Of a stretch of 64,000 nt of DNA, positions 61,315-64,000 are shown one piece after another. The stretch comes from an uncultured delta proteobacterium (GTDB lineage: Bacteria > Desulfobacterota > BSN033 > UBA1163): contig CAVPSJ010000004.1 of assembly GCA_963708295.1 (NCBI GenBank), forward strand, positions 256,001 to 320,000. The letters are read 5' to 3'. The number at the start of each line of letters is the position of its first letter. Position 1 is the stretch's first letter. The notes under the pieces are model-generated. The model saw only the letters and a program-made list of their open reading frames with translations, ran no database searches and was not told the DNA's origin. The position numbers were made by a program, and so were the translations under genes.

Positions 61315-62661
61315 ATGAAGATTCTTTTGGTCTCACCCGAGAGAAAGCGAAGAAGGGAAGAGGCCTTCCTCTTCCGGCTGAGCTTCTTAAACCTCCCTTA
61401 TATCGCAGCGGTCACACCTCCCGATGTGGAGGTGAAGATTGTGGATGAAGCTTTTGACAGAATTAATTTCGAAGAAAAGGTGGATCTGGTGGGGATTACG
61501 GCTCAGACGCCTGTTGCCCCAAGGGCCTACCAGATCGCGAGGGAATTTAGGAGGAGAGGGATCCCCGTGGTCATGGGAGGTGTCCACGCCAGTATGCTCC
61601 CTCAGGAAGCGCTTCAACAGGTCGATGCCGTGGTGGTAGGAGAGGCAGAAGGGGTCTGGCCGCATCTGATCGAGGATCTGAAAAAGGGCCAAATGAAGCG
61701 AATGTACGCAGGGAGTGACTTTTTCAACCCCTCCCATCTTCCCCTTCCGAGGAGAGAACTTCTCAACCAGAAATTCTACTTTCCGTTGAAGTTACTCGAA
61801 ACCACGCGGGGGTGCCCGCATCATTGCGACTTCTGCGGTGTCTCAAAATTCTTCGGATTCCGATACCGTAATCGGCCGGTCAGCGAAATCGAGCGAGAGC
61901 TCAAAACCCTTTTTCAAGAGGGACCGGTCATGAATCCGATCTTAAAAAATATTCTCTCCTTATTGAGCAAAGACCTTCCCTACTTCCTCAAGAGAAGACT
62001 CCTTTACATCATCGATTCCAACGTCGCAGGAGATAGGCGATTTTGCCTTGAACTTCTCTCCGTTCTTAAACGATTCGACCTCCTCTGGTACGGCCATGCC
62101 CCGGTTTCCGTCGCCTTCGATCAGGAACTCCTGGAAGGATTCGCGCAAAGCGGCTGCATCGCTGTCAATATCGGTTTCGAGTCCTTTTCCACAAAAAACC
62201 TGAAAGCGATGGGGAAGGGATTCAACCAGCCCATCCGATATGCGGAAGCCGTCCGTCGGATTCACGATCAGGGAGTTGGCATCATGGGAACCTTCATCGT
62301 AGGGTTGGATGACGATGACCCCGGTGTCTTCCGACGGATTATTGATTTCTCCATTGATTCAAAGCTTGACTGGGCCCTCACCTTTATCATGGCGCCTTAT
62401 CCCGGAACGGATTCGTTTCTTCGACTGGAAAAAGAAGGAAGGATCCTATCCAGGGATTGGGAGAAATACGATTCTCTCCATGTCGTCTATCAGCCTCTCG
62501 GGATGTCCGTGGAAGAGTTGGAGAAAGGGATGAGGAGCGCCTGGAAAGACGTCTTTTCAACTTCTTCCATCTGTAAGAGGGTTCTCAAGAGACCCTGGAT
62601 TCATCCCCTCTTTTATTTAGGGATGAATTGGGGATTTCACCGATTGACAAAAACATGGTAG
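61315..62661 (+). CDS. B12-binding radical SAM protein
   Basis: DLVGIT, VVMGGVHAS, VVVGEAE; TRGCPHHCDFC. Confidence 0.92.
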   Translation: MKILLVSPERKRRREEAFLFRLSFLNLPYIAAVTPPDVEVKIVDEAFDRINFEEKVDLVGITAQTPVAPRAYQIAREFRRRGIPVVMGGVHASMLPQEALQQVDAVVVGEAEGVWPHLIEDLKKGQMKRMYAGSDFFNPSHLPLPRRELLNQKFYFPLKLLETTRGCPHHCDFCGVSKFFGFRYRNRPVSEIERELKTLFQEGPVMNPILKNILSLLSKDLPYFLKRRLLYIIDSNVAGDRRFCLELLSVLKRFDLLWYGHAPVSVAFDQELLEGFAQSGCIAVNIGFESFSTKNLKAMGKGFNQPIRYAEAVRRIHDQGVGIMGTFIVGLDDDDPGVFRRIIDFSIDSKLDWALTFIMAPYPGTDSFLRLEKEGRILSRDWEKYDSLHVVYQPLGMSVEELEKGMRSAWKDVFSTSSICKRVLKRPWIHPLFYLGMNWGFHRLTKTW

Positions 62662-62961
62662 CTCCCTCATCCCCCTCCACGGCGGAAACTGTGTCGCAAC
62701 AGGGAGAAGGCAGAGGCGGTCGGGGATGTCGGGCGGCCTGCCGGGAAGCGGCCTGTCAAGGGATAAACGGGACGCTTCCCAAAGATTTAGAGCGGTAACC
62801 TTTAACGTTTGGATTCAGGATCGCCAACCATAGGAAAACATTCGATTTTGAGCCAACGACGGTTTCCCATACCTAAAAGACCCGCATTCTTCTATGTTGA
62901 AAGTCAAGCCTCATTCACAATAACAGAGCCACGCCGGTATGTTTGTTGAGACAGCACCTCC

Positions 62962-63106
62962 CTTTAAAATCAACCTTCTATTAGCAGACATAGCTTGGGG
63001 TAGCTGCAGTATCTTCTCATATTTTAAAGATGTGGGCTCGGAGTCTAAAGGATACAGACATCATCCTTGTGATGAGCTGTAAGAATGCGGCATCCGATGC
63101 CCACAT
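62962..63106 (-). ncRNA. Predicted IS110 bridge RNA (target-binding loop 63030-63106, donor-binding loop 62962-63029)
   Basis: Two stem/internal-loop/stem units; loop strands match the flank CCGCATTCT and the junction CTTCTAT. Confidence 0.8.
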
Positions 63107-63142
63107 GAGCGATTTATCGGGTCGGTTCTTGTCCCCCCATCG

Positions 63143-64000
63143 TCATTCAATAACACTCGTCACGTATTCCGCCTCATTCTTCAGGACATAACGGATCCGG
63201 TTCAGCAGCTTCCTGGCGATCTTAATGATGGCCTTGGTCTTGCGCATCCTTTTACAATATTCGTTAAATGCCTCCATCATCGCCGGGTCCTTACGGACAG
63301 CAATCCAGGAGGCTTCGATCAACAACCATCTCAGGGACGAATGTTGTCGCCGGGTCATGCCTCCTACGTGTTCTTTCTCGCCACTGCTCCGAGTATCTGG
63401 AATCAATCCCACGTAACTACACAATTGATCAATCGAACGAAAACGGGTGACCTCATACAACTCCGTCAGCACGATCATGGCCGTCAGGGTGCTAATCCCC
63501 GGGATGGTCTTCAGCAACGAAATCCACGAACGGTACTCTTCCGTCCGGGCCAACGCCACCACCGAGCGATTCAGCTTGGCCAGGATCTGGCGCAGGTGGC
63601 CAAGTTCTTCCAAGTGAAGCTTAAGCGCCACGTCCCCGCTGGTTCGCTCCATCCGAACCTTCTCAATCCACTGGATGAATCGTCGCGACCAATGGCCCAT
63701 CTCCCTTTGCTCTGGAATGGCCACCCCATAGAAAAGAAGCATCGATTTAATCTGGTTTTTGCACCGCGCCTGTTTCCGCCCCATGCTCAGCCGAGTCCGG
63801 ATCAGGCTGCGGTCCTCCAATTTCCACCTCGGAGGGGTATAGATCCCTTCGATCTCACCCCCTCGAAGTCCCCTGGCCAATTTGCGACAATCGATCCGAT
63901 CCCGTTTGCTCCTTCGCTCCTTATCTCGGGTCGGTATGTCAGCCGGGTTCGCAACGATATTGTCAATCCCCTTCTCTCTCAGTTGGTCATGGATCCAGAA
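63143..64000 (-). CDS. IS110-family transposase/recombinase, 5' part outside the window
   Basis: KRDRIDCRKLA (last two Asp of DEDD), LLKTIPGI, SYVGLIP..RSSGE (catalytic Ser), ARKLL; frame stays open to 64000. Confidence 0.93.
   Translation of the reverse strand, partial: FWIHDQLREKGIDNIVANPADIPTRDKERRSKRDRIDCRKLARGLRGGEIEGIYTPPRWKLEDRSLIRTRLSMGRKQARCKNQIKSMLLFYGVAIPEQREMGHWSRRFIQWIEKVRMERTSGDVALKLHLEELGHLRQILAKLNRSVVALARTEEYRSWISLLKTIPGISTLTAMIVLTELYEVTRFRSIDQLCSYVGLIPDTRSSGEKEHVGGMTRRQHSSLRWLLIEASWIAVRKDPAMMEAFNEYCKRMRKTKAIIKIARKLLNRIRYVLKNEAEYVTSVIE

Follow-up and report, generated by a model that had tools for sequence, protein, structure and literature searches.

The closest described systems are IS621, with its bridge RNA (Durrant et al. 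2024, Hiraizumi et al. 2024), and the IS1111-type elements ISEc11, ISPa11 and ISKpn4, with their seekRNAs (Siddiquee et al. 2024). The IS621 bridge RNA is laid out as left target guide (LTG), right target guide with handshake guide (RTG+HSG), left donor guide (LDG) and right donor guide (RDG) (PMC11208158). IS1111 is defined by sub-terminal inverted repeats of 7 to 17 bp (usually 11 to 13) with extensions of 7 (or 6) and 3 bp; its transposases have 330 to 350 amino acids, and in its seekRNAs the top-strand match lies 5' of the bottom-strand match (bioRxiv 10.1101/2024.04.26.591405). Durrant et al. predicted a right-end bridge RNA in 93.0% of IS1111 elements and placed the donor-binding letters of many IS1111 orthologues in a multi-loop. 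Here, we analyze a 64,000-nucleotide (nt) stretch of an uncultured delta proteobacterium genome (GenBank assembly GCA_963708295.1, contig CAVPSJ010000004.1, here C4; C4:256001-320000, hereafter the window), whose end cuts an insertion sequence (IS) that we completed with contig sequence from beyond it. We are highly confident that this is an intact, recently active IS110-family element of IS1111-type architecture, with a two-loop bridge RNA (seekRNA) of about 145 nt following the transposase stop codon. Right-end RNA-guided elements of this type are already well described, and this one adds a member, not a new system. The original prediction, which read the RNA from the raw sequence, had proposed a candidate new programmable recombinase/RNA pair and thereby overstated its novelty, as right-end bridge RNAs and seekRNAs are published (PMC11208160; bioRxiv 10.1101/2024.04.26.591405). 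The 2024 papers' lists of predicted bridge RNAs and targets for each ISfinder element may already include close relatives.

The boundaries of the element come from a comparison of the locus with the rest of its genome. A BLAST search with positions 62500-64900 returned a second copy at C4:169661-171265 (99.751% identity across 1605 nt) and many loci at which the left and right flanks of the window copy directly adjoin. At least nine of these empty sites, which are copies of a genomic repeat, join position 62890 to 64476 and read CCGCRTTCTAAAR over the join. On the plus strand, the window copy (copy 1) reads CCGCATT-CT, then TCTATGTTGAAAG ... CAATCATAAGGT, then CT-AAAGC; the trinucleotide TCT stands at both junctions and once per empty site. 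Copy 2 lies in an unrelated locus, in the same 9+5-nt site, with the flanks CCGCATT-CT and AAAGG. The junctions, the empty sites and copy 2 thus define the body of the element, a CT core on both sides and a 14-mer target. The body measures 1583 nt, or 1585 nt counting one core (about 1.58 kb). Both copies sit in CCGCATT-CT-AAAGS in one orientation and the empty sites have a single core, so insertion is site- and orientation-specific and duplicates nothing beyond the shared core, as is characteristic of the IS110 family.

The two copies differ at just two positions inside the element (62993 and 63138), both noncoding, and their open reading frames (ORFs) are identical; therefore, transposition was recent and the gene is intact in both. 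Position 62993 is G in the window copy and C in copy 2. As a check on the ends, we aligned contigs from four public DNA runs to the locus. Joints in these contigs skip 1585 and 1586 nt exactly at the element ends, and loose ends pass from flank to flank. The element-skipping joints have short sides (32 and 25 letters) and 90% likeness, and they probably come from other repeat copies; because they most likely derive from unoccupied repeat copies, they serve as a consistency check only. An abutted circle junction was not found among the contig joints of the four runs.

The gene inside the element encodes a protein of 356 amino acids, of which the window holds a fragment. This fragment matches PF02371 (E = 3.3e-22, 79.1 bits against a cutoff of 21.3), and it scores just below the cutoff for PF01548 (27.1 bits against 29) because it is truncated at the window end. 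The full-length protein matches the NCBIfam model NF033542, "IS110 family RNA-guided transposase" (195.8 bits against a cutoff of 140), and close relatives contain both PF01548 and PF02371. Across an alignment of 20 relatives, D19, E66, D105 and S277 never vary, and conservation of D108 is 90% or higher; by analogy, these residues may be equated with D11, E60, D102, D105 and S241 of IS621. The C-terminal motif GLIPDTRSSG fits the pattern G..P....SG / GL-P----SG. As judged from its domains and putative catalytic residues, the protein is an IS110 family DEDD/Tnp transposase. A protein search found 4392 relatives at E <= 0.001 among 6313 candidates, and the best 120 of the 4392 are 72 to 92% identical. 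The recombinases with solved structures are distant (ISCro4, E = 1.7e-8; IS621 chain 8wt6_A, E = 1.7e-6), and their best-scoring stretch covers only residues 227-346 of the query, in the C-terminal part. A plasmid collection gave 2033 matching records, all below 60% identity (best, 30 to 35%); the named insertion sequences among them are all less than 36% identical.

The RNA gene lies on the minus strand at 62962-63107, 3' of the transposase stop codon, and consists of two adjacent stem/internal-loop/stem units, a target-binding unit followed by a donor-binding unit. Every feature that the original prediction had described here was recovered at or within 1 nt of its place, and the folds it had drawn for the two units were obtained computationally and are borne out by covariation among relatives. 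The outer stem of unit 1 (63030-63042/63093-63106) has 13 bp and one bulged A, and its inner stem, TACAG/CTGTA, occupies 63053-63057/63077-63081. In unit 2, the outer stem is 62962-62970/63021-63029 and the inner stem GCAG/CUGC. Unit 1 (77 nt) adopts the described fold with a minimum free energy (MFE) of -30.9 kcal/mol (z = -4.67, with 0 of 200 shuffles as stable). The two units together reach z = -2.48, and the whole 261-nt region z = -0.35 relative to shuffles. As thermodynamics alone backs only unit 1, the case for the structure is a comparative one.

Relatives were collected in a scan of one genome per species, which gave 113 confirmed stretches, of which 80 loci (given L numbers here) were kept; their genome bins are labelled Nitrospirota, Thermodesulfobacteriota, Syntrophaceae, Ignavibacteriota, Chloroflexi and others. 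The two-unit pattern follows the stop codon directly in every locus with enough sequence. When 53 distinct RNA segments were aligned with MAFFT, RNAalifold found 22 pairs on the plain alignment, 14 of them with a compensatory change. A covariance model built on a manually written structure had 60 matches in the 61 sources searched, all just 3' of the transposase gene. In the model alignment (58 distinct rows), 91.1% of cells are paired, compared with 34.3 to 45.5% when the 3' partners are slid by 1 to 3 columns; compensatory (two-sided) changes occur in 26 of 34 pairs, and 0 of 500 shuffles reach any of five measures. This alignment was fitted to the structure and is hence biased in its favor, yet the slid controls and the independent RNAalifold result indicate that the covariation signal is real. 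Helices 1 to 4, in the target unit, are 86 to 95% paired with compensatory changes, and helices 5 to 7, in the donor unit, are 75 to 97% paired with compensatory change in 14 of 17 pairs. The weakest part is the A/U-rich outer stem of unit 2 (75 to 84% paired).

The loop letters of unit 1 match the flanks of the element. The guide CCGCAUUCU on the 5' loop strand repeats, letter for letter, the flank that adjoins the element, as had been claimed, and CCUUUAG stands on the opposite loop strand, which matches the far flank AAAGG in copy 2 and AAAGC in copy 1. The predicted target, CCGCATT-CT-AAAGG, is matched at 14 of 14 positions by copy 2 and at 13 of 14 by copy 1. With the transposase strand as reference, the 5' loop strand complements AGAATGCGG and the 3' loop strand has the same letters as CCTTTAG; on that strand, the left target half is the flank adjoining the right end (RE) of the element.

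Covariation of loops and flanks among homologues had been set beforehand as the test of the original prediction, and it is present on both sides. For this comparison, the ends in relatives were located by conserved sub-terminal motifs, independently of the guides, and loop strands were taken from the model alignment. At 33 of 52 loci, an uninterrupted run of 8 or more letters is common to the reverse complement of the 5' strand and the RE junction of the same locus, compared with 126 of 2624 cross pairs. For the 3' strand and its own junction at the left end (LE), a match of at least 7 letters occurs at 23 of 49 loci, compared with 26 of 2322 cross pairs. The cross-pair matches arise because some loci have a common target family (GGAATGAC...). 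The two letters that follow the right target guide, AC in this element, behave as a handshake dinucleotide: in a script count, they agree with the two opening letters of the LE in 42 of 45 distinct combinations, and the three misses (L005, L006 and L009; CAGACUC) are a one-letter parsing offset. Other types track the LE likewise, namely AT in L026 and L028, GT in L063, L071 and L082, and GC in L072.

In some relatives (L019, L025-L028, L042, L043, L063, L066, L067, L069 and L082), the RE-side junction has GG as its core and the 5' target-loop strand has CC as its last letters; AG is retained in the LE-side core and in the other guides of these relatives. One of them, L043, belongs to a genome with 15 copies (L043-L057). 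It looks as if the target core here differs from the donor core, with each junction keeping the top-strand version.

The 3' strand of the donor loop matches the near end of the element. The segment AUAGAAG, recognized in the original prediction as the reverse complement of the junction CTTCTAT, corresponds on the transposase strand to the final 5 nt of the RE together with the core. The RE-tail variants ATAGA, ATAAA, ATAGG, ATAAG and ATGAC are each found with the same 5-mer in the donor loop. Among 13 distinct pairs of loop and RE end, 5 agree fully, 5 disagree only at a single core letter and 3 have mislocated ends. The letters after AUAGAAG were considered as a second handshake guide, and this candidate was rejected; viewed by eye and uncounted, they show no consistent match to the left half of the target.

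By analogy with IS621, ISEc11 and ISPa11, the RNA would be made, bound by the protein and used to direct recombination. Read on the CT-core strand, opposite the transposase gene, its layout equals that of IS621. The 5' strand of the target unit, identical to the left target half and core, would pair with the bottom strand, and the 3' strand, complementary to the core and right target half, ends in the handshake guide, which matches the last two letters of the left half of the donor. In the donor unit, the 3' strand would pair with the core and the right donor half (the near element end), and the 5' strand would pair weakly with the left donor half. The RNA would hold the excised circle and the site CCGCATT-CT-AAAGG side by side within a transposase tetramer, and the tetramer would carry out strand exchange at the core. 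We infer by the same analogy that the element is programmable.

Several observations weigh against this account. The genome has only two copies of the element despite 2 perfect and 13 one-mismatch unoccupied 14-mers (56 more have two mismatches, and about 32 with at most two mismatches are expected by chance). For unit 2 (68 nt), the described fold is the MFE structure, but z = +0.27 and 120 of 200 shuffles are as good; the difference at 62993 also puts a C.C mismatch in the inner hairpin of this unit in the window copy, which is absent from copy 2 and from the family. A scan of the element for sigma-70 promoters and terminators, from which we conclude nothing further, gave 3 promoter-like sites (1.3 expected), not one of them positioned for transcription of the RNA, and no terminator-like site. 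At 19 of 52 loci on the RE side and 26 of 49 on the LE side, the match falls below the thresholds used above; four such loci (L040, L078, L081 and L007) probably have ends mislocated by the heuristic, and L020, L021, L024, L031 and L061 show a true one-sided disagreement of guide and flank, as if later rearranged. Finally, the left-donor strand AGAAGAU matches the far end, ATAAGGT, at only 5 of 7 letters, and its core-facing letters, AC, do not match CT. Because this strand drifts in the family while the LE stays constant, we regard left-donor pairing as weak and as a candidate only.

It is on this last point that the original prediction failed. Its far end was to read GAAGATA-CT followed by AAAGG: the core and the flank are as predicted (AAAGC in copy 1, AAAGG in copy 2), but the donor half is not, since the far end reads ATAAGGT-CT and the guide aligns two letters further 5'. 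Similarly, a CT core had been assigned to all four guide segments and stands in three; in the fourth, GAAGAUA-CU, the U belongs to a conserved linker before the inner stem. Reading of the far end by GAAGAUA-CU through a 1-nt bulge was rejected in favor of the family register.

One possibility is that the element and RNA are as described above, with guides confined to the target unit and the right-donor strand; the protein would then recognize the left donor end by way of the sub-terminal repeat, leaving a structural role for the 5' strand of the second loop. We consider this unlikely, though clearly the best of the alternatives. It would explain why this strand varies, with core-facing letters of AA, AC, CU, UU, UC, GC or CA, while the LE start, ACCTTATG, is almost invariant across relatives. 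The LE variants of L043, L017, L024 and L079 likewise have no matching change in the loop, and long sub-terminal repeats are a feature of IS1111-type elements that IS621 lacks (PMC11208160). On the other hand, a family consensus block, AAGGU, is kept opposite the AAGGT of the left donor half in most members; L026 and L028 (GAU in the loop, GAT at the end) and L072 (a terminal C in both) do follow the LE, and the LDG of IS621 also has one unpaired core position (PMC11208158). We keep the bridge RNA reading with a weak left-donor guide. Table 1 lists the positions of the features discussed.

Table 1. Features of the element, its RNA and its target site, in window numbering.
Feature	Position	Strand	Basis or remark
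Insertion sequence body	62891 to 64473 (473 nt past window end)	-	second copy, empty sites, contig
Transposase gene	63143-64213 (63143..64000 in window)	-	356-aa ORF, start at 64213
14-nt target CCGCATT-CT-AAAGG			site sequence CCGCATTCTAAAGG
Left target half CCGCATT	62882..62888	+ (CT-core strand)	both copies, empty sites; identical to first-loop 5' strand
Near core CT (AG on transposase strand)	62889..62890	+	both junctions, empty sites, contig joints
Far core CT	64474-64475		beyond window; contig
Right target half AAAGC	64476-64480		beyond window; contig
Target-binding unit (unit 1)	63030..63106	-	fold, covariance
Left target guide CCGCAUU-CU, 5' loop strand, RNA CCGCAUUCU	63082..63090	-	9/9 identical to 62882-62890 (+)
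Right target guide CCUUU-AG-AC, 3' loop strand	63043..63051	-	complementary to CT+AAAGG, then handshake AC
Donor-binding unit (unit 2)	62962..63029	-	covariance-model match: outer stem, internal loop, inner hairpin
Donor-loop 5' strand AUGAGAAGAUACU, weak left-donor guide; contains GAAGAUACU	63008..63020	-	partial match to far end
Right-donor guide AUAGAAG, 3' loop strand	62975..62981	-	reverse complement of CTTCTAT at 62889-62895
Right sub-terminal inverted repeat, CTTTCAACAT on transposase strand, then 3-nt extension AGA	62894..62903	-	conserved in relatives
Left sub-terminal repeat	64458-64468		beyond window; contig
Left end (LE)	64214-64473		beyond window; 260 nt
173-nt hairpin module	~64286-64458 (L001 2786-2958)		left end, beyond window; contig, relatives
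TTGACT hexamer	62902..62907	-	read from sequence; candidate -35 box
TATGAT hexamer	64464-64469	-	left end, beyond window

By its architecture (repeats, extensions, RNA position and match order), the element fits the IS1111 subgroup. When the LE is reverse-complemented and compared with the RE, the sub-terminal repeats ATGATTGAAAG and ATGTTGAAAG agree at 10 of 11 positions with one indel; the element has AGACCTT as its terminal extension on the left (7 nt, the core counted in) and AGA on the right. Like the IS1111 seekRNA elements, this one has its RNA downstream of the transposase gene, a top-strand match 5' of the bottom-strand match, and sub-terminal repeats with 7- and 3-nt extensions; it makes no target duplication beyond the core and has genomic repeats as its natural targets, and the long form of those seekRNAs likewise consists of two hairpins, each with an internal loop. 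It shares with IS1111/IS110 elements a candidate promoter at the circle junction. Unlike the seekRNA elements, its protein has 356 amino acids instead of 330 to 350, its LE contains an extra 173-nt hairpin module, and its target lies in a repeat of about 250 nt resembling a miniature inverted-repeat transposable element (MITE) and not in a repetitive extragenic palindrome (REP) or attC. Both of its units are simple internal loops, in contrast to the IS1111 orthologues of Durrant et al.

The resemblance to IS621 is of another kind. Both RNAs have the target unit first and the donor unit second, with simple internal loops in which each strand corresponds to a different one of the two DNA strands around a CT core, and both have a 2-nt handshake guide after the right target guide, in the same position and with the same behavior (PMC11208158). 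As in IS621, loop strands covary with target (both strands) and donor (3' strand), and the protein combines a DEDD RuvC-like domain with a Tnp domain that has a conserved Ser. In contrast to IS621, whose RNA is in the left end upstream of the gene, the RNA here is in the right end after the gene, its CT-core strand runs antisense to the gene, the element has long sub-terminal repeats and the left-donor guide is weak.

A second possibility is that the element is a branch of the IS110 group proper with its RNA downstream of the transposase gene, and not a member of IS1111. This seems improbable to us, considerably more so than the protein-read donor end. Some IS110-type members do have a 3' noncoding region (bioRxiv 10.1101/2024.04.26.591405), and the protein length falls outside the IS1111 range. 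The best named relatives from plasmids, ISEc45, ISSso6 and ISHvo9, are only 29 to 33% identical; in the available part of the seekRNA preprint they are unmentioned, apart from one remark on "Hvo9". In the window copy, moreover, the LE (260 nt) is not shorter than the noncoding RE (252 nt). The two are of similar length because of the 173-nt module, however, and relatives without it have an LE of 81 to 100 nt and a noncoding RE of about 215 to 250 nt. The 10-of-11 repeat and the 7- and 3-nt extensions are as IS1111 is defined (bioRxiv 10.1101/2024.04.26.591405), and the GL-P----SG motif and the order of the strand matches also argue against this alternative. An IS1111-type element remains the reading that we prefer.

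That the region is an ordinary 3' untranslated or terminator structure with chance loop-flank matches is hardly credible: the 261 nt are no more stable than shuffles and match no Rfam family, but the loop letters vary with flanks over dozens of independent insertion sites and also with the element ends, the scan found no terminator-like site, and covariation of structure, of guides with flanks and of guides with ends already contradicts it. The Rfam scan took in three empty target repeats as well as the RNA and the left end, and its best scores were 14 to 21 bits against cutoffs of 38 to 230.

The ends have further features that may bear on expression. If the ends were abutted in a circle, which we assume from the described elements would form, the hexamers TTGACT and TATGAT would come to lie 17 nt apart (the spacing is inferred) and create a junction promoter that is close to consensus and directed toward the transposase gene. 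Just before the start codon, at 64214-64280 on the minus strand, GGCAAGTCTC and GAGACTTGCC are the two arms of an inverted repeat that encloses the 5' leader and stops at the ATG. Nearly all relatives conserve this repeat, which is a candidate occluder of the ribosome-binding site.

The hairpin module of the left end belongs to a type of about 120 to 170 nt, with further examples at L005:109-229 and L026:3780-3891. It folds into a long hairpin (-55.5 kcal/mol in L005), and on either side stand, in inverted orientation, TTATCCACA and TGTGGATAA, which we take to resemble the DnaA-box consensus. The module lies in the LE in this element, in L003-L006 and in L010 and in the RE, in the same orientation, in L026 and L028; in this genome, it occurs inside the two IS copies only. 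One joint in the run contigs skips the 173-nt module, with a 20-letter side that makes it weak.

Copy 1 has inserted into a MITE-like repeat, about 250 nt long and with inverted repeats at its termini (GAGRCTGTGTCGCAAT...), which spans 62781-62890 of the window and continues at 64476-64560 of the contig. It has 70 nhmmer hits at E <= 1e-3 over both strands, some copies being hit on both (for example, C5:121640-121921), and no Rfam family match. A location of copy 2 inside the same repeat was ruled out, as only a 25-nt stretch around the site is alike; the context of copy 2 is common to a second group of short repeats.

ISPpu9 and its small RNA Ssr9 of Pseudomonas putida offer another parallel, since there too an IS110-family element sits in genomic repeats with a small RNA gene downstream of its transposase. 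Unlike in P. putida, whose genome has solo ssr9 copies, the covariance model found no RNA gene in this genome beyond the two IS copies. Among relatives, L007 carries a second, partial RNA copy downstream of the first (L007:4029-4136), and in L012 a solo left-end fragment lies upstream of the complete element, some 200 nt from its left end; both look like signs of tandem or aborted insertions. The gene next to the element (61315-62661, plus strand) encodes a B12-binding radical SAM protein (PF04055, PF02310) and is intact and unrelated to the element.

Taken together, this is an ordinary, intact and probably active element, and it opens no new class of system. Tentatively, the relatives may form an undescribed large IS1111-like subfamily with an IS621-like twin-loop right-end RNA and a covarying handshake, in which the left donor half would be read mostly without RNA, the target core may differ from the donor core, and the ends would host a portable hairpin module of about 120 to 170 nt with inverted DnaA-box-like 9-mers; we think it doubtful that all of these parts hold jointly. 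The bridge RNA and its 14-nt target could be read from raw sequence, and that prediction was checked against a second copy and empty sites. The element provides a further natural recombinase/RNA pair, far removed from both IS621 and ISCro4. The comparative set of 58 distinct RNAs with their ends and flanks could help in working out how to design guides for bridge RNAs encoded in the right end, with regard to handshake guides, weak left-donor guides and nonidentical cores.

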